Source: an uncultured Gemmatimonadales bacterium
GTDB lineage: Bacteria > Gemmatimonadota > Gemmatimonadetes > Gemmatimonadales > GWC2-71-9
Assembly (NCBI GenBank): GCA_963817715.1
Contig: CAWFPG010000004.1
Span: 199,673-263,672, forward strand
Length of the DNA stretch: 64,000 bases
Direction of reading: 5' to 3'
Both the position numbers and the translations under genes were made by a program. Positions 5-51,963 of this stretch are shown one piece after another (positions within the stretch are counted from its first letter, which is position 1; each line of letters begins with the position of its first letter). Under the pieces are notes generated by a model. It ran no database searches and had not been told where the DNA came from. It worked only from the letters and a program-made list of their open reading frames with translations.

Positions 5-1543
5 ATGCTTGCCTTCAACGCCCGTCGCGCGCCCGGCTACTGGATCCAGCTCTCGCTCGCGGCCGGTATCGCAATCCTCGGCCTGGTCCTCGGCAGCACC
101 GCGGTGGTGATCGGTGCGATGCTCGTGTCGCCGCTGATGGGACCGATCGTGGAGCTGGGGATGGGCTTCGCGGTGGGCAGCTCGTTCCTGGTGATCCGCT
201 CGGCACTGCGGGTGGTGATGAGCACCGTGGTGGTGGTCCTCGGCACCGCGCTCTTCACGATGGTGCTCCCGTTCCACGAGGTGACCACCGAGATCGCCTC
301 GCGCACCTCGCCGACGGTCCTCGACCTGCTCGTCGCGGTGTTCTGCGCGCTCACCGCGGCCTACACGACCGTGCGCCGCACCAGCGACACCACCTCGGCG
401 GCGGCGGGTACCGCGGTCGGGATCGCGCTGGTGCCGCCGATCTGCGTGATCGGCTACGGCCTTGGCACCAGCGACAGTCGTATCGCCGGCGGGGCTGCCC
501 TCCTGTTCGTGGCCAACTTCTCGGCAATCCTGCTGCTGGCGGTGGTGGCGTTCCTGGTGCTCGGCTACAACGACGTCGACGCCGAGGCGCTGGAGGCGCG
601 CTTCTTCACCACCCGCGACACCCGCCTCGACCGGGTCGCGGGACGGGCCGAGCAGTGGCTCAAGCGAGCCTTCGGTTCACAGTACAGCTACGCTGCCCGG
701 CTGATGGTGCCCTTGGTCTTCCTGCTGGCGGTCTACTTCCCGCTGCGCTCGGCGCTCGATCGGGTGACCTGGGAGGTCGCGGCGCGGGCCAACGTCCAGC
801 GTATCATGGCTCGCGATGTGCCCGGGGCTGTGCAGCAGTCGGTGACGATCGACCAGCAGGCGATCGTGGTGCATCTCGTGGTGGTGGGCGACGCCGGCGA
901 GGCACTGACGCTGGAACACCGACTCGAGACCGAGCTCGCCGCCGCTACCGGTGTGACCCCGACGGTGAGTGTGCTGGCGGTGCCCGACGCTGCCGCGCTG
1001 GCGCGGGCCACGGCGGCGGCAACGACCGCCGGCCCGACGGCACCGTCTCTTCCGGCCCTCGATCAGGCCCGCTCCCGACTCACCGCGGAGCTGGGCCGGG
1101 TCTGGCCGACCCGGGTGTCGGGACCGCTGGCCGGGTGGGCCCTCGATCTGCCACCGAGCGGTGCTCCGGTGCTCACGCTCTTCCACTTCGGTGTCCCGCT
1201 GGGTGCTGCGGGCGAGGCGCTGGTCGCCGCGGCACTGGCGCCGGCGCTCGAGTCGAATCCGTCGGTGCGCGATGTCCTGCTCGACTCGACCGTGATCGCG
1301 GCAGGCGACGACCCATCGGCCTGGCTCGTTGCGCTCGAGCCGACCCTGGCCCGCTCACGCTGGATGACCGGGGCCGTGGCGTGCATCAGCGGACCGGTGG
1401 TCGATACGGTGGGCCGATTCGCCGACAGCGTGCGGGCCGCCCTGGGGAGGGCCAATGGTCGGGCCACCATCGTGGCTGGCCCACGTTGGCGCTTCCGGTG
1501 GACCACCGGTGCGTGCGTGGCCGACACTGCGGCGACCGGCTGA
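5..1543 (+). CDS. DUF389-family integral membrane protein (may extend upstream of the window)
   Basis: 512-aa ORF. The N-terminal half is a run of hydrophobic helices with the DUF389-like motif VSPLMGPIVELGMG. The C-terminal half is Ala/Pro-rich and soluble. GC3-rich codon usage. Confidence 0.6.
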   Translation: MLAFNARRAPGYWIQLSLAAGIAILGLVLGSTAVVIGAMLVSPLMGPIVELGMGFAVGSSFLVIRSALRVVMSTVVVVLGTALFTMVLPFHEVTTEIASRTSPTVLDLLVAVFCALTAAYTTVRRTSDTTSAAAGTAVGIALVPPICVIGYGLGTSDSRIAGGAALLFVANFSAILLLAVVAFLVLGYNDVDAEALEARFFTTRDTRLDRVAGRAEQWLKRAFGSQYSYAARLMVPLVFLLAVYFPLRSALDRVTWEVAARANVQRIMARDVPGAVQQSVTIDQQAIVVHLVVVGDAGEALTLEHRLETELAAATGVTPTVSVLAVPDAAALARATAAATTAGPTAPSLPALDQARSRLTAELGRVWPTRVSGPLAGWALDLPPSGAPVLTLFHFGVPLGAAGEALVAAALAPALESNPSVRDVLLDSTVIAAGDDPSAWLVALEPTLARSRWMTGAVACISGPVVDTVGRFADSVRAALGRANGRATIVAGPRWRFRWTTGACVADTAATG

Positions 1544-1622
1544 CGGGAACCCCAGCGGCAACGCGACGTTCCCTTGACAGGTTCCGCCCCGCCGGGGCGG
1601 TCGCAATCGTGGAGTGAGAGTG

Positions 1623-2678
1623 ATGACCGAACAGCACAGCCCGTCGCCTGCGGCGGGCCCAGAGATGGTGGTGATCATCGGGTCCGGGCCGGCCGCCTGG
1701 ACCGCGGCGATCTATGCCGCGCGGGCCAACCTCGAGCCGTTGGTCTTTGAGGGTGAGCCCTCGCGCGAGATGATTCCCGGCGGCCAGCTGATGTTCACCA
1801 CCGACATCGAGAACTTTCCCGGCTTCCCCGAGGGGATCGGCGGGATCGAGATCATGCAGCGGATGCGCGACCAGGCGGTGCGATTCGGCACCCGGGTGGT
1901 GAGCGAGAATGTCGCCTCGGTCGACTTCAGCCAGCGGCCCTTCGTGCTGCACCCGAGCTACGGCGCGCCGGTCACGGCCAGCACGGTGATCGTCGCGACC
2001 GGTGCCCGGGCGGTGTGGCTCGACGTGCCCAACGAGGAGCGCCTGGCACAGTCGGGCGGCGGCGTCTCGGCCTGCGCGGTCTGCGACGGAGCGCTGCCGT
2101 TCTTCCGCAACAAGGTGCTCGCGGTGGTCGGCGGTGGCGACTCCGCGATGGAGGAGGCCACCTACCTCACCAAGTTCGCCGAGCAGGTGGTGATCGTCCA
2201 TCGCCGCGACGCGTTCCGGGCCTCGAAGGTGATGGCCGATCGGGTGCTCGCCAATCCGAAGATTCGTGTGGAGTGGAACACCGAGGTGACCGAGGTGCTC
2301 GGCGACGACTTCATCAACGGGCTGCGGCTCCGCGACACGACGACCGGCGCCGAGCGCGAGCTGGAGGTGGGCGGACTCTTTGTCGCGATCGGGCACAAGC
2401 CCAACACCGGTTTCCTCGCCGGGCAGCTCGACCTGTCGCCGGCCGGCTACATCCTGACGCCGACCCCATGGCGGACCGAGACGAGCGTGACCGGGGTGTT
2501 CGCGGCGGGTGACGTGATCGACGACTACTACCGGCAGGCGATCACCTCGGCCGGGACGGGGTGCATGGCGGCGCTCGAGGCGGAGCGCTGGCTGGCTCAT
2601 CACGAGGTGGCCGCAGCCGAGGCGCCGGTGGTCGAGACCGCCGCCGAATCGTCGATCGCTCGCGCCGGCGGAGCGTGA
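1623..2678 (+). CDS. trxB: thioredoxin-disulfide reductase
   Basis: ATG 1623 lies 8 nt after GGAG. FAD motif [17 protein letters not shown], redox-active CAVCDG, NADPH motif [10 protein letters not shown] and C-terminal FAAGDV. Confidence 0.9.
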
Positions 2679-3325
2679 CCGATGCCGCCGCGCCGCTGGT
2701 GGTCGGGATCCCCACCGGCAGCTTCGTCGAGAACTGCTGGGTGCTCGCCGACCCGGTGTCGCGCGACGCCGTGGTGGTCGATCCGGGTGAGGGCCACCAG
2801 CAGATTCTCGACGCGGTGCGCCAACACGACCTCCACGTGTCGGCGATCTGGCTGACTCACGCGCACATCGATCACATCTGGGGAGTCGATGCGGTCCGCC
2901 GGGCGACCGGGGCAGCGGTGTGGCTCCACCCGGGGGATCGCGAGTGGTACGACCGGCTGCCGGAGCAGGGGTTGATGTTCGGGGTCGGCGACCTGCCGAC
3001 CCTGGCGCCACCCGACCATGCGCTCCACCAGGACGACGAGCTCGCCGTCGGGTCGCTGCGGTTCCGGGTTCGCGAGGCGCCCGGCCACTCGCCGGGACAC
3101 GTGGTCTTCCTCGGGCACGGCCTGTGTGTCGGTGGCGACGTGATCTTCGAGGACTCGATCGGCCGCAGCGATCTTCCCGGTGGCGACGGCGCCACGCTGC
3201 TGGCGACGATCCGCCGCGAGATTCTCACGCTGCCCGATTCCACCCGGATCCTGCCGGGTCACGGCCCGGAGACCACCGTGGGACGCGAGCGGCGACGGAA
3301 CCCCTTCGTCGGTGATCCGGGGTGA
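2675..3325 (+). CDS. MBL-fold metallo-hydrolase (glyoxalase II-like)
   Basis: GTG 2675 overlaps the trxB stop (GTGA). Zinc motif [10 protein letters not shown] followed by GHSPGH. The longer track ORF from 2561 overlaps the trxB 3' end and is Arg-rich, so the later start was chosen. Confidence 0.75.
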
Positions 3326-3400
3326 AGGAAACCACCCTTCACCAGCCCAGCCCGTTCGGCTAGCTTCCGCGCCAAACCTCAGCCAGGACCAGTCGTGCCG

Positions 3401-4822
3401 ATGGCATTCCGCACCGAAAAGGACCCGCTCGGCGAGAAGCAGGTGCCGGCAGACGCGCTCTACGGCATCCAGACGCTCCGCGCCGTCGAGAACTATCCCA
3501 TCTCCGGCCTCCGGCCGCTGCCCGCCTTCGTCGACGCGGTGGTGCGGATCAAGAAGGCCGCCGCGCTGACCCACAAGGAGACCGGGCGTCTCGATGCGAC
3601 ACGGGCCGATGCGATCGTCGCGGCGGCCGACGAGGTGCTCGGTGGCCAGTACCGCGACCAGTTCGTGGTCGATCCCTATCAGGCCGGCGCCGGCACGTCG
3701 CACCACATGAACGTGAACGAGGTCCTGGCCAATCGCGCCAACGAGCTGCTCGGCGGCACGCGGGGCAGCTACACGCCGGTGCACCCGAACGACCATGTCA
3801 ACATGGCGCAGTCGACCAACGACGTGATCCCGACCGCGATGCGGCTCGCCTCGCTCGGTGCGCTCCCGGCGCTGCTCGAGGCGATGGACGGGTTGGCGGC
3901 ATCGTTCCTCGATCGTGGCGTGGCATTCGACGGGGTGCTCAAGTCGGGTCGCACCCACCTGCAGGACGCCACGCCGATCCGACTCGGCCAGGAATTCACC
4001 GCCTACGGTCACACCGTGGCGCGGCACCGGGCCAAGCTGGCCCAAGCGGCGACCTGGCTGCTGCCGATGAACATCGGCGGCAGCGCGGTGGGCACCGGGC
4101 TCAACGCCGAGCCGGCGTACCCGGCGCTGATGGTCAAGCACTTGCGAGCGATCACCGGGCTCGAGCTCGAGGTGAGCGAGGACCGGATCCAGCTGATGCA
4201 GTCGATGGGCGACATCGCCACGCTGAGCGGGGCGTTGCGAGCCTTCGTGCTCGACCTCTGCAAGATCGCCGACGACATCCGTCTGCTGGCCTCCGGACCG
4301 CGCACCGGCCTCGCCGAGATCAGGTTGCCCGAGGTCCAGCCGGGATCGAGCATCATGCCGGGGAAGATCAACCCCTCGATCGCCGAGATGGTGAACCAGG
4401 TCTGCTATCAGGCGCTGGGGCTCGACACCACGGTGGCGATGGCCGCGAAGGCCGGCCAACTCGAGCTCAACGTGATGATGCCGGTGATCACCCACAACAT
4501 CGTCTTCGCGCTGCAGATCGTGGCCAATGCGGTGCGAGTCTTCGACCAGCGCTGCATCAGCGGTGTCGAGGCCGACGAGGCGATGTGCGCCCATTGGCTG
4601 GAGCGCTCCCCGGCACTGGTCACCGCGCTGGCCCCCAAGATCGGCTACGCCGAGGCCGCCAAGCTGGCCAAGGAGGCGATCCGGACCGGCCAGACCGTCA
4701 AGGAGCTGGTGGTTGCCAAGCAGCTCCTGCAGGGCCGTGAACTGGAAGACGTGCTCGACCTGCGCGCGATGACGGAGCTGGGCGTGCCCGGCGCGGGAAA
4801 GGGCACAGCGGCCGGCGGGTGA
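3401..4822 (+). CDS. aspA: aspartate ammonia-lyase (class II fumarase/aspartase superfamily)
   Basis: N-terminus RTEKDPLGEKQVPADALYGIQTLRAVENYPISG is aspartase-like. Carries the superfamily signature GSSIMPGKINP. Confidence 0.8.
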   Translation: MAFRTEKDPLGEKQVPADALYGIQTLRAVENYPISGLRPLPAFVDAVVRIKKAAALTHKETGRLDATRADAIVAAADEVLGGQYRDQFVVDPYQAGAGTSHHMNVNEVLANRANELLGGTRGSYTPVHPNDHVNMAQSTNDVIPTAMRLASLGALPALLEAMDGLAASFLDRGVAFDGVLKSGRTHLQDATPIRLGQEFTAYGHTVARHRAKLAQAATWLLPMNIGGSAVGTGLNAEPAYPALMVKHLRAITGLELEVSEDRIQLMQSMGDIATLSGALRAFVLDLCKIADDIRLLASGPRTGLAEIRLPEVQPGSSIMPGKINPSIAEMVNQVCYQALGLDTTVAMAAKAGQLELNVMMPVITHNIVFALQIVANAVRVFDQRCISGVEADEAMCAHWLERSPALVTALAPKIGYAEAAKLAKEAIRTGQTVKELVVAKQLLQGRELEDVLDLRAMTELGVPGAGKGTAAGG

Positions 4823-8448: not shown

Positions 8449-9598
8449 GTGACCACCCAGCGCGGGGTCGAGCGGATCGACCTGCGGCACGACGAACGCC
8501 TCGGGCCCCTGGTGCCCCTCGCCCCGCTGGTGCGGGCGGTGGGAGGCAGCATCGAGGCCGTGGAACCGTGGATTGTCTGGCGGAGTCCGAGCGGGCGTTT
8601 CCGCTTCCTCCCTGGTACACCCCTGATCGATGACGGCAACCAGATCCGCACCCTCCCCGCGTCGGTGCACACCGGTGGCGACACCACCTGGATTCCACTG
8701 GCCTTTGTGGCCGAGGTGCTGGCAGACCCGGCGCGGAAGGCGTGGACCTGGACCGCCTCGAGCGCGACGCTGGCGGAGGGACCGCCGATCTCGCCACTGG
8801 TGTCGCGGCCGGCGGCGACCACCGTCGGGGCCGAGGAGCGCTCCCGACTCCCCGCAGGACTGCGAGCGGGCCATCATGTGACCATCGACGCGGGGCACGG
8901 TGGCACCGATCCTGGCAACCCCGGAATGTTCTTCCCCAACGGACTCAAGGAGAAGGACGTCACGCTCGCGGTGTCGCTGCTCGTGCGTGACGAACTCGAG
9001 CGCCGCGGGGTGAAGGTGACGATGACCCGGACCACCGACACCCTGATCGCCCTGGGACAGCGCGCGCCACGCTACTGTCGCGATCGCTGCGACCTGTTCG
9101 TCTCGATCCACGTGAACTCGCTGCCGAGGCGGCCCGGCTTCACCACAGTGCGTGGTTTCGAGACCTACTTCCAGGCGCGAGGCACGCGACCGCCGACGCC
9201 GCGCGCGTGGCCTCGATGGAGAACGACGCCATGCGCTACGAAGTGGCCGACAGCGACGGCGAGGACCCAGGGACTCGACTTCATCCTCAAGGACCTCCAG
9301 GCCAACGAGTACCTCCGCGAATCGGCGCGCGCAGCCGAGTTGATCCAGTCGTCGCTCGGTGAGGTGGAGACCGGTGGCGATCGCGGGGTGCAAGCAGGCG
9401 AACTTTGCGGTGCTCAACACCGCCCGACGGCCGGCGATCCTGGTCGAGATCGGCTACAGCACCAATCGCGAGGATGCCCGCCAGATGACGACCAGCAGCG
9501 GCCAGCACGAACTCGCCGGTGCGATCGCCCGGGCCATCGTGAGCTATCTCCGCGAGTTCGATCGCAAGACCGGAGTGACCCGGGTGGGCTCGCCATGA
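8449..9598 (+). pseudogene. N-acetylmuramoyl-L-alanine amidase (Amidase_3, AmiC-like), three frame breaks as assembled
   Basis: Catalytic text IDAGHGGTDPG...FVSIHVNS...FETYFQ is followed by TADAARVASMENDAMRYEVADSDGEDPG in another frame (about 9176-9271). It returns to the first frame for LDFILKDLQANEYLRESA. DRGV|KQANFAVLNTARRPAILVEIGYSTN is broken at c9391 and ends in track ORF 9359..9598. The start is uncertain: a signal-peptide-like VRVALL begins at GTG 8385 in yet another frame. Confidence 0.8.
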
Positions 9599-10935
9599 GG
9601 CGAGTCCTCGCCCTGCTCCTGCTGCTCACGGCGTGCGGGTGGTCGAACGCGTTGTACAACGCCCGCCGCCTGTCGGCCTCGGCGGCCAAGGCCGAGCGCC
9701 AGGATCGCTCTTTCGACGCCGGCTCACTCTGGGGTCAGGTGGCGGTGAAAGCGGAGTCGGCCTACGTCCGCAATCCCGATGGCGGCCAGGCCGCCGAGGC
9801 GCTCTGGCTCCGGGGCCGGGCGCTGGCGCACCTCGGCGACTGCGTCACCGCGATGCCGGTCCTCGAGCATGCCCGGGTGGCGGGCGCCGGGGCCGACTGG
9901 ATTGACGCCCTGCGACTGGAACTCGCCCGGTGCCGGGCGCAGGGCGGCGATCCCGAGGGCGCGGTGGCGATGCTGGAACCGTTGCTCGGCAGCGAGGATG
10001 CCGAGCTCCGCTCCGGGGCGATGCAGGTGGCCGGTCGCGCCCTGGTGCGGGCGGGGCGATGGGGCGAGGCGCTCCAGATGCTGGCGGGGGATCCTGATCC
10101 TGATGCGACCTGGGATCGTGCCCTCGCGCTGGCTCACCTCGGCCGTGTCGATTCCGCCCTCGCGGAAGTGTCACCCCGCATCGCCCTGGCCGACTCCAGT
10201 GCCAACTGGGATGAGTTGGTTCGTACCGTCGCCGCGGCGTCCCCCGAGGCCATCGACCCGTTGCTCACGCGCCTCGGCACGATGCGCAAGGTGAACGACA
10301 CCATCATGGCCCGTTGGCGGCTCGCGGCGGCCCAGGGGCTTCTCGCGGCCGACCACGGCGCGGCCGACCGGTACCTCGAGGCCGTGCTCGAGACCCCCAC
10401 GGTCCCGTCGGCCTCGCAGGCGCGGATGCTCCTGACGGAGCGTCGCATGGCGACGGTCGCCGATAGTGCATCGCTGCAATCGGTACTCGACTCACTCGGC
10501 CCGCTGAATCGCGGCGATGGGGTGGCGATGATCTTCGCGCAGGACCTGGCGCGCTGGGGGGATGCGATCCAGGGCGACATCCGCGCCAACCCACCGGGGG
10601 CCGCCACGGGTGACCTGGCGATGTTCTTCGACGCCTCGATCGCCCGGGACAGCCTGAAGGCACGCCACCTGGCGTCGTGGCTGTTCCAACGGATGGAGCA
10701 CGGGTGGCCGCAGTCGCCCTATCTCGCCAAGGGGCTGCTGGCACGGATCGCTCTGGAGCCCGACTCGGCCGAGGCAATCAGGGCTCGGCTCGCTGCGATC
10801 ACCGACTCACCCTATCTCGCGTTCCTGCAGGGGCAGGAAGGGCAGCGCTTCACCGCACTGGAGGATTCGCTGCGATTCTATCTCGACGACCGGATGGCCG
10901 CAGTCATCGCTGGGTCGGGACCGGACGCCAATTGA
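9595..10935 (+). CDS. lipoprotein with TPR-like helical repeats (hypothetical)
   Basis: ATG 9595 overlaps the amidase stop (ATGA). Lipobox MRRVLALLLLLTAC. The rest is Ala/Leu-rich and helical with repeated pairs. It is the in-frame continuation of track ORF 8449..10935. Confidence 0.55.
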   Translation: MRRVLALLLLLTACGWSNALYNARRLSASAAKAERQDRSFDAGSLWGQVAVKAESAYVRNPDGGQAAEALWLRGRALAHLGDCVTAMPVLEHARVAGAGADWIDALRLELARCRAQGGDPEGAVAMLEPLLGSEDAELRSGAMQVAGRALVRAGRWGEALQMLAGDPDPDATWDRALALAHLGRVDSALAEVSPRIALADSSANWDELVRTVAAASPEAIDPLLTRLGTMRKVNDTIMARWRLAAAQGLLAADHGAADRYLEAVLETPTVPSASQARMLLTERRMATVADSASLQSVLDSLGPLNRGDGVAMIFAQDLARWGDAIQGDIRANPPGAATGDLAMFFDASIARDSLKARHLASWLFQRMEHGWPQSPYLAKGLLARIALEPDSAEAIRARLAAITDSPYLAFLQGQEGQRFTALEDSLRFYLDDRMAAVIAGSGPDAN

Positions 10936-15997: not shown

Positions 15998-16074
15998 GAT
16001 GTAGACTCCTGGGTACTGGGTTCCGTGCAGCCGATAAAGATAACGACCGGGTCGGGCGTCTGGCAACCGATAGG

Positions 16075-21346
<5,272 letters not shown>

Positions 21347-24734: not shown

Positions 24735-25645
24735 ATGCGCCGTATCCTGCCTGTCCTGTTCGCCGTCATCATCGCCGCCTGCGGCGGTTCCTCGCCGACC
24801 GGTCCGTCCGGTCCCGGCGGCGGGTCGAACGTCTTCTCCGCCTCGATCGACGGCACGGCCTGGTCGGCGCCGTCGACGGCGATCAGCTCGGCGAGCAACA
24901 CCGGGTCGATCCCGGGTGGGATCCTCTTCACCGGCACCACCACTGTCGGCACCCAGGCGCGGTCGCTGATCCTGTCGCTCGACCGGATCAAGGGACCCGG
25001 CACCTATCCGCTGGGAGTCAACACCGGGACCACCGCGGGCGGCACCCTCACCATGACCTTCGGCTCGGCATCGTGGTGGACCCCGCTCAACGGCAAGTCG
25101 GGCACCCTCACCATCACCTCGCTCACCAGCAGCCGGGTGGTGGGCACCTTCAGCGGTGAGCTGGCCCCGCTGGCGGGTGGCACCGGCAACGTCCACATCA
25201 CCAACGGCACGTTCGATGTGCCGCTCAACCCCGGCTACGCCCCCCGCCGGCCGACGATGAAGGCTCATGGGTCAAGGCGACGATCGGGGGCGCCGACTGG
25301 AACGGGGCGACGGTGATCGGCATCGGTGGCGGGACCGGGACCGCCGCGATCACCGCGACCACCGACGACTATGTGGTGACGGTCACCGCGGGGCCACTCT
25401 CCGGACCGACCAGTGGTCCGCTCACCGATGCCGGCACCGTGCCGATCCGCACGGTGCGGGTCCAGCGCGCCGGCACCACCAATGCCTGGGGTGGACTGAG
25501 CGGTGACGTGGGCACCCTCACCATCACGTCGATCACCGCGACGCGGATGGCGGGGAGCTTCTCCGGCACGCTGGCGCCGATCTCCGGTGGAGGCGCCGGC
25601 CTGGTCGTGCTCAACGGCCAGTTCGATGTGAAGATCGGGCAGTGA
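24735..25645 (+). pseudogene. lipoprotein with an internally duplicated beta-rich domain; frame broken at C6 run 25240-25245
   Basis: Lipobox MRRILPVLFAVIIAAC. Domain 1 ends GTLTITSLTSSRVVGTFSGELAPLAGGTGNVHITNGTFDVPL. Domain 2 (frame of ORF 25313, readable back to PADDEGSWVKATIGGADWNGA) ends GTLTITSITATRMAGSFSGTLAPISGGGAGLVVLNGQFDVKI. Confidence 0.6.
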
Positions 25646-25767
25646 CGATAGACGATAGACGATAGACGATAGACGTGTGGTCCGCGGACGACTGGTGCTC
25701 GGATCCGGGCTCGAGTGCTCGTGATCGAATGCGTCTATCGTCTCTCGTCTCTCGTCTCTCGTCTATC
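25644..25767. repeat. nested palindromic element B: (GACGATA)x4 array, 54-nt core, (GTCTATC)(GTCTCTC)x3(GTCTATC) array
   Basis: Read directly. Fills the gap between convergent stop codons (TGA 25643-25645 and the complement of TAG at 25763-25765). The arms pair about 25/28. The core contains the palindrome GTCCGCGGAC. Confidence 0.8.
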
Positions 25768-26452
25768 GCGCCAGGCGATATCCCGTCTTCCGCACCGTGA
25801 TGATGTGCACCGGGTTGGCGGGATCCTCTTCGAGCTTCCGTCGCAGCTCGAGGATGTGCACGTCGACGGTGCGCGAGATCACGTCGGCTTCGTACTGCCA
25901 GACCTCGTCGAGCAGCTCGGCTCGGGTGGCGACCCGGCCGTCGCGATGGAGGAGCGCGACCAGCAGGTCGAACTCCTTGGGGCGGAGCGCGACTGCCTCT
26001 CCATCACGGGTGACCTCGTGGGTGGCTCGGTCGACGGCCACCGTGCCGAATTGCCAGCGGTCCGGGGCGGGATGCGATTCCTCGGGTGGGGCGTGGCGGC
26101 GCAGCATTGCGGCCACCCGGGCCAGCAGCTCGGGGAGCGAGAACGGCTTGACCACGTAGTCGTCGGCGCCATGGCGGAAGCCGCGCAGTCGGTCGGCTTC
26201 CGAGCCCCGCGCCGAGAGGATAAGCACCGGGACCTCGCGGCCCTCGTCGCGGAGCTGTCGCAGCACGTCGATGCCCTCCATGCCGGGGAGCATGATGTCG
26301 AGGATGAGGAGGTGAGGGTCCCAGTGTCGGGCCTGGCCAAGGCCCTTCTCGCCCGTCGCCTCGACACGCACCTCGTAGCCATCGTGGGCGAGGTTGAGCC
26401 GCAGTCCCTCGGCCAGGGTCTGGTTGTCCTCGATCACCAGGATCCTTCGCAT
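25763..26452 (-). CDS. OmpR/PhoB-family response regulator
   Basis: MRRILVIEDNQTLAEGL...LLILDIMLPGMEGIDV receiver domain, and a winged-helix output domain ending VHIITVRKTGYRLAR. Confidence 0.9.
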   Translation of the reverse strand: MRRILVIEDNQTLAEGLRLNLAHDGYEVRVEATGEKGLGQARHWDPHLLILDIMLPGMEGIDVLRQLRDEGREVPVLILSARGSEADRLRGFRHGADDYVVKPFSLPELLARVAAMLRRHAPPEESHPAPDRWQFGTVAVDRATHEVTRDGEAVALRPKEFDLLVALLHRDGRVATRAELLDEVWQYEADVISRTVDVHILELRRKLEEDPANPVHIITVRKTGYRLAR

Positions 26453-42354: not shown

Positions 42355-42389
42355 TCACCGCCGGGAACGATCGGGGCGGTCGGGAGGGC

Positions 42390-42415
42390 GGGGGACGGCG
42401 GGGCTGCCGTCCCCC
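42390..42415 (+). terminator. GC hairpin after secA (GGGGGACGGC-ggggct-GCCGTCCCCC)
   Basis: Perfect 10-bp stem, 36 nt after the secA stop. No T tail. Confidence 0.5.
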
Positions 42416-42429
42416 GCGTGCGTCGGGGT

Positions 42430-42492
42430 GGCCAACGGCCGAGTCCCCGCCGAGGCATTGCTGCCTCGCGCGGGGACTCGTCGCCGTTGGCC
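42430..42492. repeat. 63-nt near-perfect long hairpin (GGCCAACGGCCGAGTCCCCGCCGAGGCA-ttgc-TGCCTCGCGCGGGGACTCGTCGCCGTTGGCC)
   Basis: Read directly. Two small bulges only. Confidence 0.6.
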
Positions 42493-43154
42493 GGTGGTCT
42501 CTCGGTTCGTCGCCGGCACTCGCGGAGCGTCTACCGGCCTGACCATCGGTCTTTCCCCTCGTCGGACGGGCCCGACTCAGGTGCCCCAGGATCCCGGGGC
42601 TTCGGTTGTGGCCAGCGACCCCACAACCTGTCCGGCAGGGTCGAACGCCTGCCGCACCGCCTTCCGCCAGCGTCCCGGGAGAAGGCCCCATCGCGGGCAA
42701 CCCGTCCCGCGACGCACCGATAGGATACCGCCGTTCCCGAAACGCGCAAGGGGGGACGATCGGGCGCCTTGCGAAGCTGGCGTGGTCGTGGCAATGTTGG
42801 CCCGTCGGGCAACGACGGCCGTCGCTGCCCGACCCATTGGACACGATGCATCAGACACCAACGATCGTTCCGCGATGGGGGCCTCTCTGCCCCGCCACCC
42901 GGCTGGTTGCCGGCGGTTCATCGTACCCGCGCCGAAGGGCGCGTCACGCTCCAGTCACAAGGCCTTCACGTGCTTGACCGTTCCCGGTGGGCGGCGCAGT
43001 TTCCTGCGTGTCGCCAGCACCCGGTGGTCCGGCGCGCTGGAGCGCGATCGTTGCACGACCAGGACGGGACCCGGTGCGGACGTTGCTCCGTGCCGGCTCC
43101 ATGCGGGCTGCCGGCCCCCGTCCCCGGTGGCACCCACGTACGGGGAGGTTCGTG

Positions 43155-47156: not shown

Positions 47157-49333
47157 CGCCTGCCGCGCCCGCCGTCCTCGCCGAGCTCTCGCCGAACTTC
47201 TTCACCACCCTGGAGAAGTACGCCGAGCGGCTCGACATCCCGCTGATCGACCGCGCGCTGCGGTACTCGGCGGCGGCCCATCGCGGCCAGAAGCGGATGA
47301 GCGGCGAGGACTTCGTCGAGCACTCGATCGCGGTGGCGTCGATCCTGGCCGGGCTGCTGGTCGACAGCACCTCCATCTGCGCCGCGCTGCTGCACGACGT
47401 GGTCGAGGATTCCGCGGTCTCGACCGACGACATCGCGCGCGAGTTCGGGGCCGAGGTGGCGACGCTGGTCGACGGCCTCACCAAGATCTCGCACCTGACC
47501 TTCCGCTCCTCCGCCGAGGAGCAGTCGGAGAACTACCGCAAGCTGCTGTTGTCGGTGGCGAAGGACGCCCGGGTCATCATCATCAAGCTGGCCGACCGGC
47601 TCCATAACATGCGGACGCTGGAACACCTGAGCGAGCAGCGCCGCCGCCGGATCGCCACCGAGACCCGGGAGATCTACGCCCCGCTGGCCCATCGCTTCGG
47701 CATGGCCCAGGTCAAGGCCGAGCTGGAGGACCTGGCGCTCAAGTTCCTGGAGCCCGACGACTATGCCACCCTCGCCCAGCAGGTGGCCGCCAAGCGGGCC
47801 GAGCGCCACGAGGCGATCGAGCGACTGCGGGTCCCCCTCGAGGACGAGCTGCGACGCGCCGGGGTGACGGATGTCGAGGTGAGTGGGCGCCCCAAGCATC
47901 TCTGGTCGATCTATCAGAAGATGAAGAAGCGCAACAAGCCGTTCGAGGAGATCTACGACCTGATGGCGATGCGGGTGATCGTGGGCACGGTGCCGGAGTG
48001 CTACCACGTGCTCGGCATCATCCATCACGTCTGGACCCCGCTGCAGGAGCGGATCAAGGACTACATCGCGAGTCCCAAGAGCAACGGCTACCAGTCGCTC
48101 CATACCACGATCTTCGGTCCCGGCGGGCAGCTGTTCGAGATCCAGATCCGGACCCGCGAGATGCACCGCACCGCCGAGTACGGCATCGCGGCGCACTGGC
48201 TCTACAAGACCTCGACCGAGCCCGAGCACGAGGACGAGATCGGCCGCCAGCTGGGGTGGTTCCGCCAGCTGCTCGAGCTGCAGCAGGAGAGTGCCACGCC
48301 GGAGGAGTTCCTCGAGTTCCTCAAGGTCGACCTCTATCACGACGAGATCTTCATCTTCACGCCGCAGGGCGATGTCAAGCAGCTCCCCAAGGGAGCGACC
48401 GCGATCGACTTCGCCTTCCACGTGCACACCGACGTGGGTCTGCATACCACCGGCGCCAGGGTCAACGGCCGGATCGCCCCGTTGCACCGCGAACTCAAGA
48501 ACGGCGACACCGTGGAGATCCTGACGTCGAAGCAGGCCAGGCCGTCGCGCGACTGGCTGGCCCACGTCCGCACCGGGCGGGCCCGCAGCAAGATCAAGCA
48601 GTGGATCCGCCAGGAGGAGGAGACGGTCTCGGCCCAGCTGGGCCGCGAGATCCTGGTGCGCGAATTGAAGCGGCGCCGGCTCGAACTGCCCGAGGAGGGA
48701 CGGCTCGACGCCGCCGGCCGGCAGCTCAACCTGCAGGATGGCACCGCGCTGCAGGTGTCGCTGGGTCGCGGCGACCTGGCCCTCGGTCAGGTGATGAAGC
48801 TGCTCTTCCCCGAGCTGCCGGGCGAGGCGCTGGCCGAGAAGCCGCCGACGATGTTCGGGCGAGTGATCGACCGGTTCCGGCTGGGGCGGGGGATCAAGAT
48901 CCAGGGTGTCGATGGATTGATGGTCCGCTATGCCCAGTGCTGCCAGCCGGTCCCCGGCGACCCGGTGGTCGGCTACGTGACCCAGGGGCGCGGCATCTCG
49001 ATCCACCGGGCCGACTGCCCCAACCTGCTCACCCTCAGCGACCAGGGGCGCCGGGTCGAGATCGACTGGCAGGAGCAGAGCGGCGAGACCTACGCGGTGC
49101 GGCTCTCGCTCACCGGCGATGATCGCCGCGGCCTGTATGCCGACATCATGTCGGCCATCTCGGGCAGCGGCACGAACATCAAGGGCGCCGACCTGCAGAC
49201 CCGCGACGGCACGGCGTTCGGCACGGTGTACGTCGAGGTCGACAACCTGCCCCACCTCGCCAAGGTGCTCAAGGCGATCCGCCGGGTGAAAGGCGTCTCG
49301 AGCGTGGAGCGGCGGGAACAGGGAGAGAACTGA
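47153..49333 (+). CDS. relA: bifunctional (p)ppGpp synthetase/hydrolase (RelA/SpoT homolog)
   Basis: HD domain AAHRGQKRMSGEDFVEHSIAVA...LLHDVVED. Synthetase RPKHLWSIYQKM...DLMAMRVIV...YQSLHTTI. TGS and ACT-like tail. GTGA overlap with radC. Confidence 0.9.
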   Translation: MTPAAPAVLAELSPNFFTTLEKYAERLDIPLIDRALRYSAAAHRGQKRMSGEDFVEHSIAVASILAGLLVDSTSICAALLHDVVEDSAVSTDDIAREFGAEVATLVDGLTKISHLTFRSSAEEQSENYRKLLLSVAKDARVIIIKLADRLHNMRTLEHLSEQRRRRIATETREIYAPLAHRFGMAQVKAELEDLALKFLEPDDYATLAQQVAAKRAERHEAIERLRVPLEDELRRAGVTDVEVSGRPKHLWSIYQKMKKRNKPFEEIYDLMAMRVIVGTVPECYHVLGIIHHVWTPLQERIKDYIASPKSNGYQSLHTTIFGPGGQLFEIQIRTREMHRTAEYGIAAHWLYKTSTEPEHEDEIGRQLGWFRQLLELQQESATPEEFLEFLKVDLYHDEIFIFTPQGDVKQLPKGATAIDFAFHVHTDVGLHTTGARVNGRIAPLHRELKNGDTVEILTSKQARPSRDWLAHVRTGRARSKIKQWIRQEEETVSAQLGREILVRELKRRRLELPEEGRLDAAGRQLNLQDGTALQVSLGRGDLALGQVMKLLFPELPGEALAEKPPTMFGRVIDRFRLGRGIKIQGVDGLMVRYAQCCQPVPGDPVVGYVTQGRGISIHRADCPNLLTLSDQGRRVEIDWQEQSGETYAVRLSLTGDDRRGLYADIMSAISGSGTNIKGADLQTRDGTAFGTVYVEVDNLPHLAKVLKAIRRVKGVSSVERREQGEN

Positions 49334-49338
49334 CGACC

Positions 49339-49746
49339 ATGGCCACCTACCTCCTCAAGACCGAGCCGTCGACCTACTCGTGGGACGAGTTGGTGCGCGA
49401 GCGCCGGACCGTCTGGGACGGCATCCGCAATGCCGCCGCCCTGATCGCCATTCGCCAGATGAAGCGCGGCGACGAGGCGATCATCTATCACTCCGGCAAG
49501 GAGCGGGCGATCGTCGGGATCGCGAAGATCGTGAAGGGCGCCTATCAGGATCCCAAGCACGACGACCCCAAGCTGGCCGTGGTCGACGTGGTGCCGGTGC
49601 GTGCGGTCGATCCGCCGGTGCCGCTGGCGTCGATCAAGGCGGAGCCGAAGCTCAAGCAGTTCCCGCTGGTGCGGATCTCGCGACTCTCGACGATGCCGGT
49701 GAGCCCGGCGGAGCGGAAGGTGCTGGCGAAGCTGGGGGTGACCTGA
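49339..49746 (+). CDS. EVE (PUA-like, DUF55) domain protein
   Basis: MATYLLKTEPSTYSWDELVRERRTVWDGIRNAAALIAIRQMKRGDEAIIYHSG... Confidence 0.8.
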   Translation: MATYLLKTEPSTYSWDELVRERRTVWDGIRNAAALIAIRQMKRGDEAIIYHSGKERAIVGIAKIVKGAYQDPKHDDPKLAVVDVVPVRAVDPPVPLASIKAEPKLKQFPLVRISRLSTMPVSPAERKVLAKLGVT

Positions 49747-49747
49747 C

Positions 49748-49900
49748 GGAGGGCGGAGGACGGAGGACAGGGGCCTTCAGCCGCGGCCGTCAGGCCGCGG
49801 TGATGCGGGACCCAGATTGAGCCAGTCGTCCACATCCCCGCGGCCTGACGGCCGCGGCTGGAGATCATCCGTCGTTCCGTCCTCCGTCCTCCGCCGCTCC
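49748..49900. repeat. nested palindromic element C: GGAGGGC(GGAGGAC)x2 array, perfect 23-nt inner inverted repeat, (GTCCTCC)x2GCCGCTCC array
   Basis: Read directly. The outer arms 49748-49768 and 49879-49900 pair with one bulge. The inner arm CAGCCGCGGCCGTCAGGCCGCGG (49778-49800) is the exact reverse complement of 49838-49860, and each inner arm is itself self-complementary. The element starts 2 nt after the EVE stop. Confidence 0.85.
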
Positions 49901-49917
49901 GAATAGAACCCGAAGAC

Positions 49918-49929
49918 CCGACTATATTC
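49918..49929 (+). promoter_or_regulatory. CCGACTATATTC motif with a TATATT -10-like hexamer; putative leaderless promoter of uvrB
   Basis: TATATT at 49923-49928 ends 6 nt before ATG 49935, with no SD. Same 12-mer as at 6054-6065. Confidence 0.35.
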
Positions 49930-49934
49930 CCCGG

Positions 49935-51963
49935 ATGCCCACGTTCGAGGTCCGCGCCCCGTTCCAGCCTGCGGGGGACCAGCCCCGCGCCATCGCCGAG
50001 CTCACGGCGGGGCTGGCGCGTGGCGACAAGTACCAGACCCTCCTCGGGGTGACCGGCAGCGGCAAGACGATGACGCTGGCGCACACGATCGCGGCCCACG
50101 GCAAGCCGACCCTGGTGATGAGCCACAACAAGACCCTGGCCGCGCAGCTCTACGGTGAGCTCAAGCAGTTCATGCCCGTCAACGCGGTCGAGTACTTCGT
50201 CTCGTACTACGACTACTACCAGCCCGAGGCCTACGTCCCCTCGACCGACGTCTACATCGAGAAGGACGCCTCGATCAACCAGGACATCGAGTCGTTGCGG
50301 CTGCGGGCCACGTCGTCGTTGATGGAGCGCGACGACGTGGTGATCGTCGCCACCGTGTCGGCGATCTACGGCCTCGGCGATCCGGCGGCCTACCGCGCGC
50401 TGATGGTGTCGATCGCGCGCGGCGAGCGGCGCGGACGCGACGGGATCCTGCAGGACCTGGTGGCGATCCAGTACCAGCGCAACGATGCGTCGTTCGAGCC
50501 CGGCACCTTCCGGGTTCGCGGCGACACAATCGAGATCTATCCCGCCTACGACGAGCAGGCGATCCGGATCGAGCTCTGGGGCGACGAGGTGGAGCGGATC
50601 AGCCGCTTTCACCCGCTCACCGGCCACCCGATCGCCCAACTCGACCGCACCGCGATCTACCCGGCCAAGCACTTCGTGACCGAGCGGGCAACGATCGAGC
50701 GCGCCGTGGCGCGGATCCGCGCGGAACTGGCCGAGCGGCTCACGATGTTGCGCTCGGCCGGCAAGCTCCTCGAGGCGCAGCGGCTCGAGTCGCGCACCAC
50801 CTTCGACGTGGAGATGATGCTCGAGGTCGGCACCTGCGCCGGGATCGAGAACTACTCCCGCCACCTCGCCGGTCGCGCGGAGGGCGAGCGTCCGGCCTGC
50901 CTGATCGATTACTTCCCGGCCGACTTCCTGGTGGTGGTCGATGAGAGCCACGTCTCGCTGCCGCAGATCAACGGGATGTTCAACGGCGACCGGGCCCGCA
51001 AGACGACGCTGGTCGAGTACGGCTTCCGGCTGCCGAGTGCGCTCGACAACCGGCCGCTCCGCTTCGAGGAGTTCATGACGCTGGTGCCGCAGATGATCAA
51101 CGTCTCGGCCACCCCGGGCGACCTCGAGCTGCAGCTGTCGGGCGGCGTGGCGGTCGAGCAGATCATTCGCCCCACCGGCCTGGTCGATCCCGAGGTGGAG
51201 ATCCGGCCGGTCACGGGGCAGGTCGACGACCTGCTCGCCGAGATCCGCAAGCGCGAGCAGGCGCGCGAGCGGGTGCTGGTCACCACCCTCACCAAGCGGA
51301 TGTCGGAGGACCTCACCGACTACCTCCAGCAGGCCGGGGTCCGGGTCCGCTACCTGCACAGCGACATCGACGCGATCGAGCGGGTGGAGATCCTGCGCGG
51401 GCTCCGGCTCGGCGACTTCGACGTGCTGGTGGGCATCAACCTGCTGCGCGAGGGCCTCGACCTGCCCGAGGTGTCGCTCGTCGCGATTCTCGACGCCGAC
51501 CAGGAGGGATTCCTGCGGAGCGACCGGTCGCTGATCCAGACCGTGGGCCGCGCGGCGCGCAACGTCAACGGCCGGGCGATTCTCTATGCCGACCGGATCA
51601 CCGGCTCGATGCGCCGCGCGCTCGACGAGATGGACCGTCGTCGCGAGCGGCAGCGGGCGTTCAACATCGAGCACGACATCACGCCGATGTCGATCGTGAA
51701 GTCGCTCGACGAGGTGCGGCTCTCGACCAAGGTCGCCGACTCGCGGACCGAGCGGCCCGACGCCCGGCAAGGCGGCCCGGTCGAAGGCGCTCGACCTGCA
51801 CGACCCGGCCCAGCGGGCCGCGGCCATGGCCGCCCTGGAACAGCAGATGCGCGAGGCGGCGGCCAACCTCGAGTTCGAGATCGCCGCACTGCTGCGTGAC
51901 CAGCTCAACGAGCTGCGAGCCGCCTCGGCGCCCGATGTCCGACGCCCGGTGGCACGGCGATGA
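49935..51963 (+). pseudogene. uvrB: excinuclease ABC subunit B, frame broken near 51755-51768
   Basis: [14 protein letters not shown], Walker [25 protein letters not shown], helicase motifs. The C-terminal UVR domain [29 protein letters not shown] reads in the +1 frame and stops at TGA 51961-51963. Confidence 0.9.

Follow-up and report, generated by a model that had tools for sequence, protein, structure and literature searches.

Why does a long and very stable palindrome stand directly before the DNA-repair gene uvrB in the genome of an uncultured Gemmatimonadales bacterium, and does it regulate that gene? The palindrome, here called element C, is 153 nt long and occupies positions 49748-49900 of the 64-kb stretch of DNA that was analysed (the window; G+C about 70%), between a gene for an EVE/PUA-like protein and uvrB. 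Our analysis suggests that element C is probably a composite of two kinds of repeat that are already known, a REPIN nested in inverted heptamer arrays. Its inner 83 nt (49778-49860) are a REPIN, that is, an inverted doublet of a dispersed hairpin of the REP (repetitive extragenic palindromic) type. Given that the orthologous spacer of relatives is either empty or filled with arrays of other units, element C is best regarded as lineage-specific repeat DNA and not as a conserved element of uvrB.

The preliminary description of this DNA, made from its letters, had set out three nested layers, with outer heptamers that pair across one bulge and two inner 23-mers that are exact reverse complements of each other, each of them self-complementary, around a loop of 37 nt (measured from the 23-mers). 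All of its coordinates and sequences were verified, and these pairings were borne out. The outer arms (49752-49768 and 49879-49895) are complementary at 17 of 17 positions, the pairing widens to 49747-49764 and 49876-49893 at 94%, and the outermost units, GGAGGGC and GCCGCTCC, account for the bulge. Around the 23-mers, the inner complementarity reaches arms of 34 nt at 91% (49775-49808 and 49830-49863). Each 23-mer has its own 8-bp stem and 4-nt loop, with DNA folds of -12.5 and -11.6 kcal/mol, and the inner doublet as a whole folds as DNA at -43.3 kcal/mol (z = -10.5). Element C, whose stem is about 60 bp long, folds as RNA at -132.1 kcal/mol on the + strand (z = -14.6; 0 of 200 shuffles as stable) and at -127.5 kcal/mol on the - strand (z = -11.1), and as DNA at -73.2 kcal/mol (z = -11.7), with no shuffle as stable in either of the latter two cases. 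Among the local inverted repeats of the window, element C and a sister, element B (25641-25768), took most of the top ranks and had the longest arms and the highest complementarity. A search of Rfam 15 with element C gave zero matches at the gathering threshold; at E <= 1 it returned only generic models of miRNA-precursor hairpins, far under their thresholds.

The inner layer, its REP family and a RAYT-like gene

The motif GGCCGTCAGGCC was first met as an inverted pair in L007, a locus of another species and at another place in the genome, where the full 23-mers are identical to those of the window and enclose an unrelated spacer of 66 nt (loci of relatives and of metagenomes are numbered L001 onwards). 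A metagenome scan with the 20-mer core of the REP gave at least 120 stretches. Among the matches listed, 55 copies carry CAG as their 5′ flank and are intergenic; the other 72 were taken to be chance GC-rich matches, because the CAG is missing and they lie mostly in coding DNA. Over all loci, from metagenome and genome contigs together, at least 61 full 23-mer copies were found, the identical 23-mer being present in L007, L100, L103, L132, L184, L194, L218, L219 and others, and several single contigs hold two or three copies. Twenty head-to-head doublets (up to 4 substitutions per arm) have CAG outermost and unrelated spacers of 7-117 nt, which leaves 19 besides that of the window with the same geometry. 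Their spacers usually start with (G/T)GATG and finish with CATCC, and the ends TGATG...CATCC lengthen the stem of element C in the same way as GGATG...CATCC lengthen those of other doublets. The TT that precedes CAG in the left linker of element C is likewise the commonest 5′ context of the family, the commonest flanks being CTT, TTT and ATT.

There are 13 types among the perfect 8-bp stems that enclose a GTCA loop, most of them with the CAG tail. The stem CCGCGGCC was counted 133 times and CCGCGCAT 14 times, followed by rarer types, whereas a control loop of equal composition, GACT, gave 0 perfect 8-bp stems. Since most stem types keep the CAG tail, the REP hairpin is maintained by compensatory changes. 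The 153-nt unit as a whole is not repeated; the REP doublet alone recurs, with flanks specific to each locus, and most of the 20 doublets have no complementary flanks past CAG/CTG. No target-site duplication was seen at REPIN doublets. At the EVE-uvrB junction, a REPIN made of the REP of element C was found in the window only and is missing in L001, L086, L221 and all other relatives; in L027, the same spacer holds an independent REPIN of variant REPs. A further dispersed motif, GTCATCCCGAGCG(A/T)AGCGAGGGACCTGCG, which is part of a hairpin, recurs in metagenome loci (L113, L120, L121, L134, L140 and L198 among them) beside the REP and beside arrays of GTGAGGG.

REPs of this kind are associated with a gene resembling RAYTs (REP-associated tyrosine transposases). 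A motif search of the window and the collected loci found one open reading frame (ORF) of the HUH...Y type, coding for 154 aa in L161, with the motifs PDHIH and YILNNP. Its product matches the NCBIfam model REP_Tyr_transpos over nearly the full length (E = 1.1e-11; positions 8-137 of 146), and a REPIN of the same REP family, one arm of which is a compensated stem variant, lies directly upstream. The proteins that cluster with it at 90% identity or more come from metagenome-assembled genomes (MAGs) of Gemmatimonadales/Gemmatimonadetes, and one is annotated RayT; the taxonomy of the protein was taken from the names of these cluster members, tblastx to Gemmatimonadota loci having overlapped too little. 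A word-indexed search for homologs gave 6 proteins only, and a PDB sequence search returned no transposase. The RAYT-like genes of L218 and L219 each have the exact 23-mer of element C about 270 nt upstream, with a second copy 5-6 kb away. The same syntenic slot is filled in L217 by a homolog of 64% identity, on both sides of which stand singlets and doublets of a variant REP, CAGCCGCGCATGTCAATGCGCGG. On sequence, the traits seen here, namely specific pairing of RAYT and REP, an apparently single conserved locus and flanking REPINs, are those that define REPIN-RAYT systems.

Heptamer arrays in the EVE-uvrB spacer and elsewhere

The Pfam family EVE was found in all homologs of the upstream gene, which carry Gemmatimonadales names, and the order radC, relA/spoT, EVE, uvrB, tsaE, tsaB is kept in relatives. 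What is conserved between EVE and uvrB is a block next to the latter, made up of the direct repeat GAAC-N7-GAAC and, 6-8 nt ahead of the uvrB ATG, TTATATT. All Gemmatimonadales loci with a spacer have it, whether they carry arrays or not (the window, L001, L002, L004, L006, L008, L011, L013, L015 and L018, and further L020, L027, L029, L086, L087 and L221). In the window, the motif CCGACTATATTC at 49918-49929 lies in this region, the ATG being at 49935, and element C, which is followed by GAATAGAACCC, stops directly before the block. The direct repeat resembles the alphaproteobacterial LexA box (GTTC-N7-GTTC), and TTATATT a -10 box whose position would suit an mRNA with a very short leader or none. 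A promoter scan of 49300-50300 gave no promoter-like site.

The rest of the spacer is variable. In L221, L006, L011, L013 and L015 it is empty, with about 14 nt from the stop codon to the GAAC box, and in L019, L023-25, L032, L036, L039 and L040 the two genes abut. A single pyrimidine-rich array is present in L002 (TTCCCAC x4), L008 (CCACTAC x3), L004 (CTCTCGC x11) and L018, and these one-armed arrays are always C/T-rich and G-poor on the sense strand. Inverted pairs occur in nine lineages with nine different units, the arms being complementary in each: GGAGGAC in the window, GCGACAG in L001, GGAGGAT in L007, GAGTCCT in L010, GAGAGAC in L020, GAGATCC in L029, TTGGGGG in L031, AGCGAGA in L060 and GAGCTTC in L087. 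Even in L001, which is close to the window (UvrB 95% and EVE 85% identical), only the outermost units and a promoter-proximal CTCCGAA align with the spacer of the window. L086 (EVE 83% identical) has the right array of the window (GTCGTTCx GTCCTCx) with no matching left arm and no REPIN, which suggests that the right array is the oldest part of element C. This array has a degenerate unit beyond the 2.6 copies of Table 1, and the right linker is homologous to the right array of L086 and to REPIN flanks in L103 and L194.

The arrays of L002 and L008 are orthologous, with unit drift and 4 versus 3 copies between the two species. Within species, arrays are identical across 10 samples in one case (L087-L096), across 4 samples in another (the species of L007; L222-L225) and in all three loci of a third (L002, L003 and L009). 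Variant units are mirrored in both arms (AAGCTGC and GCAGCTC in L087; GGAGGGC and its bulged partner in the window), indicating that the arms are inverted copies of one another and not independent expansions. Apart from this, L007 (6843-7900) and L222-L225 carry a gene for 256 aa, without a Pfam hit, in the interval from EVE to uvrB, with inverted arrays filling its two junctions (GGAGGAT/ATCCTCC and GCGAGGG/CGCCCTT); a palindrome of L086 is related to the latter pair.

Heptamers are also in excess at other junctions. A genome scan by EVE alignment yielded 80 loci, to which exact look-ups contributed others. Counted over 652 kb of Gemmatimonadota loci, tandem arrays with 3 or more copies came to 40 for period 7, 11 for period 6 and 6 for period 8; in the REP-derived loci the counts were 101, 15 and 0. 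By a crude gene call, nearly all period-7 arrays are intergenic, typically beginning 0-12 nt past the upstream stop codon, and 34 of 339 gene junctions hold one, with an inverted pair in 14 of the 34 (about 40%). Because the gene caller, which is based on GC3 (G+C at third codon positions), misses small genes such as EVE and rpmB, statistics on convergent, divergent and co-directional junctions and averages of purine content near stops versus near starts are unreliable, and the polarity result rests on per-pair orientation only: of about 12 inverted pairs in co-directional settings, 10 begin with the purine-rich arm on the sense strand and 0 have the reverse order. A like bias has been reported for Xanthomonas and Nostoc.

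The window itself holds three heptamer units, those of elements A, B and C. Element A lies between the divergent starts of an rpmB-like gene (15997, minus strand) and a GDP-mannose dehydratase-like gene (16199), and element B overlaps both stop codons of two convergent genes. The mismatches between the arms of B have no G-U bias. In one of its arms only, the three middle units are the variant CGTCTCT with CGTCTAT on either side, the pattern that homogenization driven by slippage predicts. Elsewhere, L205 (about 2500-2624) and L110 (about 9000-9110) have palindromes of several layers made of heptamer arrays only, with two different units (in L205, GTGAACG/CGTTCAC outside and GTAACCA/TGGTCAC inside), so that nesting is common in these genomes. 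Arrays of complementary units 0.4-2 kb apart also bracket whole genes, either EVE or relA plus EVE, in L026 (8470-8492 and 10453-10489), L020 (9955-9983 and 10412-10438) and L031 (9416-9463 and 9969-10001); such arrays are potential substrates for inversions like that of L085, where EVE keeps its place but is inverted with respect to relA and uvrB (93-3875) and the uvrB promoter block abuts the EVE start.

These comparisons bear on several claims of the preliminary description. It had allowed that element C might be a one-off palindrome, a view with which the many further examples in related genomes are incompatible. Its grouping of elements A, B and C into one design family holds for the inverted heptamer arrays, each of a locus-specific unit, and fails for the inner REP, which is missing in A and B. 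Nor is element C a single designed element, since its inner layer is a separate, dispersed REP/REPIN family that is found elsewhere without GGAGGAC arms. Covariation of the alternative folds had also been proposed, and this is half borne out: subfamilies differ by covarying changes in the local REP hairpin, and the pairing of the outer arms survives changes of unit between lineages, while no evidence was obtained that the long hairpin switches with a pair of local ones.

Table 1. Features of element C, its flanks and its sister elements in the window (array copy numbers and periods from Tandem Repeats Finder, TRF)
Feature	Position	Strand	Content and basis
EVE stop codon TGA	49744-49746	+	ORF 49339-49746; TRF array starts at 49745, so that the first left heptamer overlaps the stop codon
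Left purine-rich heptamer array	49745-49768	+	GACGGAG GGCGGAG GACGGAG GAC; period 7, GACGGAG x3.4; other register GGAGGGC GGAGGAC GGAGGAC (49748-49768); pairs with 49876-49895
Left linker	49769-49777	+	AGGGGCCTT; array to REP; 9 nt, unpaired
REP copy 1	49778-49800	+	CAG + CCGCGGCC-GTCA-GGCCGCGG; 8-bp stem, 4-nt loop
REPIN spacer	49801-49837	+	ends TGATG...CATCC, middle unique; comparison with other doublets
REP copy 2	49838-49860	-	exact inverted copy of REP copy 1; reverse-complement match
Right linker	49861-49878	+	degenerate units GAGATCATCC GTCGTTCC; no left partner; 10-nt bulge in fold
Right pyrimidine-rich heptamer array	49876-49900	+	(TCC)GTCCTCC GTCCTCC GCCGCTCC; period 7 at 49876-49893, TCCGTCC x2.6; pairs with left array
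Conserved uvrB upstream region, outside element C	49901-49934	+	GAAT 49901-04, N7, GAAG 49912-15, TATATT 49923-28, 6 nt before ATG
Sister element A	16073-16173		GGTCAAT x4.3, TTCACCA x3.9, GC-rich core, no REP; TRF; weak fold, z = -2.2
Sister element B	25644-25768		GACGATA x4.6, CGTCTCT x5.3, no REP; one mismatch per unit; fold z = -4.8 on both strands

Two further observations concern the window. The uvrB gene is frameshifted near its 3′ end (51773-51939): the called ORF ends in an Arg/Gly/Pro-rich tail instead of the UVR domain, and tblastn with the 95%-identical UvrB of L001 continues in another frame (51793-51939), recovering the C-terminal UVR domain. This may be either a sequencing error or a pseudogene. 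A region of about 600 nt without a convincing ORF (42355-42986) contains nested inverted repeats (42679-42696 and 42870-42887) and a palindrome (42804-42833); it matched no Rfam family even at E <= 1.

Origin of the composite and rival explanations

Most heptamer pairs, including A and B, have no REP and most doublets have no complementary flanks, and the two layers can therefore exist apart. In the composite history that we consider probable, both kinds of repeat would have colonized short intergenic spacers of Gemmatimonadales. The REPIN would be copied on single-stranded DNA by a single-copy RAYT of the HUH/Y1 type, and the heptamer arrays would arise and turn over by replication slippage, their interior units being homogenized and their edge units staying old. 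Inverted duplication, hairpin-templated correction or selection for pairing may keep the arms complementary. The REPIN was most likely inserted into the apical region of a pre-existing palindrome; this would be the simplest history, and the unpaired linkers (9 nt on the left, 18 nt on the right) fit it. On read-through of the relA-EVE operon, the region would form a single hairpin of great stability with its start in the stop codon, and the most probable effect would be a transcription barrier or protection of the 3′ end, separating EVE from an independently promoted uvrB. Element C appears to be best read as repeat DNA tolerated in no orientation but one compatible with transcription, any effect of the hairpin being incidental or mildly selected.

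Several results weigh against this reading. No RAYT gene was found in the window, and a REP search of the same 64 kb with up to 3 mismatches gave the two arms of element C and no further copy (weak REP-like hits at 9663 and 30864 look like chance); the link between REP and RAYT therefore rests on relatives. The L161 protein scores 44.9 bits against REP_Tyr_transpos, below the curated cut-off of 80 bits, and its match to Pfam Y1_Tnp is weak (E = 0.0018; score 18.8, cut-off 23). No transposition intermediate, excision or transposition event was observed. The invariance of arrays within species implies that slippage is not fast. The two layers may also not be independent, since a period-7 array lies within 80 nt of 19 of the 55 CAG-flanked REP copies (35%), versus 2 of the 72 chance hits, and four unrelated loci (the window, L100, L116 and L158) have TGACGGAGG at a distance of 4-27 nt on the 5′ side of the REP. 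Finally, a scan of 49300-50300 for intrinsic terminators (GC hairpin plus U-tract) found none, and no U-tract follows the hairpin of element C; together with the position of element A between divergent starts, this makes a terminator role neither canonical nor general.

It is possible, although we think it unlikely, that the whole hairpin is a selected RNA element for which the repeats were raw material, such as a non-canonical terminator, an insulator, a 3′-end stabilizer of the relA-EVE transcript, or a structure whose purine-rich arm masks a C-rich Rho loading site. Some REPs are transcription attenuators. REPs have been reported to influence how mRNA is turned over and how adjacent genes are expressed (PMC3479197; PMC3337134). 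The hairpin of element C is extremely stable and begins in a stop codon, but its folds on the + and - strands are nearly equal in stability and it lacks a U-tract. Complementarity of the arms persists through changes of unit from lineage to lineage, polarity is strong, with the purine-rich arm leading, and the C/T-rich, G-poor one-armed versions are rut-like; yet five close relatives do with an empty spacer of 14 nt. The sister elements point both ways: B lies between convergent genes but has one mismatch per heptamer with no G-U bias, and A, between divergent promoters, folds weakly. The invariance of arrays within species, which counts against fast slippage, would also be compatible with selection.

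A closer tie between the two layers is conceivable in two forms, both doubtful. In the first, the inverted heptamer arrays would be self-renewing, structure-constrained elements mechanistically linked to REP/RAYT and not passive products of slippage. They may be seeded from the REP flank and loop motif (TGACGG...) and expand through nicking and rejoining by RAYT or through hairpin-templated synthesis, with the arms held complementary, and the purine-first polarity would then reflect a role in the transcript, for example masking of a C-rich Rho loading site. If true, this would provide a mechanism for the long-unexplained excess of heptamers in bacteria. In the second form, which we find slightly harder still to credit, the complete 153-nt unit would be a single MITE (miniature inverted-repeat transposable element) with terminal inverted repeats of GACGGAG-type heptamers and a core made of the REP doublet, the arrays being part or product of the RAYT reaction. 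The recurrence of TGACGGAGG near the REP, accompanied in L100 by TCCGTCA on the other side, and the frequent proximity of arrays to REP copies could be read in this way, as could CCTGACGG at the EVE stop, which repeats the loop and stem of the REP. Arrays of GCGAACR precede the REP in 6-7 loci and arrays of GTGAGGG follow it in 10-11, but the units of REP-adjacent arrays are many, and complementarity across the REP is often missing (L177, L196). Moreover, most doublets lack complementary flanks and none shows a target duplication, A, B and most inverted pairs have no REP, and the right array of the window is shared with L086, which has no REPIN.

A functional tie to uvrB is not supported, and a role as a cis-regulatory DNA element of that gene, whether a cruciform or a protein-binding array that modulates an SOS-type promoter, is very improbable. 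The palindrome does end 17 nt before the conserved GAAY-N7-GAAS/TATATT region, but it is the promoter-proximal motif that is conserved and not the palindrome. Arrays occupy the same spacer in more than half of the lineages examined; several lineages, however, have no array or have EVE and uvrB abutting, close relatives carry unrelated arrays, elements of the same kind stand at junctions of unrelated genes, and no copy-number variation was seen within species. A chance palindrome or an assembly artefact can be dismissed, for although the G+C content is high and the window has at least one likely sequencing frameshift (in uvrB), the fold z-scores lie between -11 and -15, the same REP doublet occurs in independent assemblies, and equivalent arrays do not differ among 10 independent samples in one case and 4 in another, nor between short-read and long-read assemblies.

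Three further ideas about the heptamers were rejected: mimicry of Shine-Dalgarno (SD) and anti-SD sequences by GGAGG/CCTCC, given the unrelated units of other lineages; phase variation, since copy number does not vary within species and the neighbours are housekeeping genes; and 7-bp target-site duplications of transposons as the source of the arrays, because these leave inverted arrays unexplained.

If the composite reading is right, a striking and stable palindrome beside a DNA-repair gene is repeat DNA of two known classes and not a conserved regulator, which guards against over-interpreting A, B and C. The EVE-uvrB spacer offers a compact natural series, from empty through one-armed to two-armed with nine units, with or without a REPIN, that should be useful for studying the turnover of arrays and palindromes, the preference of bacterial simple sequence repeats (SSRs) for 7 nt and the mechanistic link between REPs and heptamers.

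Comparison with known systems

Like intrinsic terminators, element C is a GC-rich hairpin immediately downstream of a stop codon. Unlike them, it has no U-tract, its stem is about 60 bp instead of 5-15 bp, and the same design is also found between divergent starts (element A). The BIMEs (bacterial interspersed mosaic elements) of enterobacteria are, like element C, intergenic mosaics of REPs in alternating orientation and other short motifs; their linkers, however, consist of a few conserved motifs and not of tandem heptamers. The small dispersed repeats (SDRs) of Nostoc are reportedly mobile repeats of 21-27 nt, located in conserved stem-loops of heptamer-rich genomes, and their sequences are unrelated to the Gemmatimonadales REP.

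The outer layer compares best with the heptamer SSRs of Xanthomonas (GGGAATC) and Nostoc (GGGGA(C/T)T) (Rehm et al. 2015, PMC4692102), a class that includes the STRR heptamers and TAACTGA repeats of cyanobacteria (PMC4679880). Heptamers have been described as the most abundant class of long SSRs in many bacteria, with polymerase slippage as the proposed cause (Mrazek 2007, as summarized in PMC4679880 and PMC4692102). In Xanthomonas, there are 70-75 convergent pairs of GGGAATC heptamers, which prefer the coding strand just past a stop and the antisense strand just before an ORF; length and sequence vary among close relatives while the single or paired type is preserved (PMC4692102). In both those genomes and the Gemmatimonadales, period 7 is strongly over-represented and intergenic, arrays lie 0-50 nt from a stop codon or overlap it with the G-rich strand coding, or stand antisense just upstream of an ORF, and convergent pairs capable of forming stem-loops are frequent, their type being kept while length and sequence vary. 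An association with insertion sequence (IS) elements or surface-antigen genes is lacking in both. The differences are that one unit dominates each Xanthomonas or Nostoc genome whereas Gemmatimonadales genomes have many, and that in the latter the arms co-vary between lineages and the arrays are physically associated with a REP family. GGAGGAC and GACGGAG carry GG runs only, without the four G3 tracts of a G-quadruplex (TTGGGGG of L031 qualifies), and the G-quadruplex argument made for the Xanthomonas and Nostoc repeats is therefore inapplicable to element C.

The inner layer belongs with the REP/REPIN-RAYT systems (Nunvar 2010; Bertels & Rainey 2011; PMC3116915, PMC3337134), whose REPIN and RAYT properties are described in PMC3337134; the RAYTs of such systems are single-copy, vertically inherited Y1 transposases of the IS200-like kind, with HUH and Y motifs. 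The inner layer shares with them an extragenic hairpin repeat whose length is about 23-28 nt and whose 5′ tail is conserved, present in many copies and in inverted doublets around a variable spacer that give a long hairpin; a position of the repeat beside a syntenically conserved short gene of the HUH/Y transposase-like kind; a REP variant of its own for each RAYT homolog (the CCGCGGCC stem versus the CCGCGCAT stem); and presence or absence at orthologous sites with no target duplication. It differs in the perfect 8-bp GC helix and GTCA loop of its REP stem, in a RAYT-like protein too divergent for the NCBIfam and Pfam cut-offs, and in its host phylum: a narrow literature search found no published description of REPINs, or of such repeats generally, for Gemmatimonadota. 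For this phylum, mostly known from MAGs, a REP/REPIN-RAYT system is now documented, together with paired heptamer arrays of unusual diversity. A further difference from the systems described so far is that Gemmatimonadales copies are often contiguous with heptamer arrays and that the doublet of element C is nested within an inverted pair of them.

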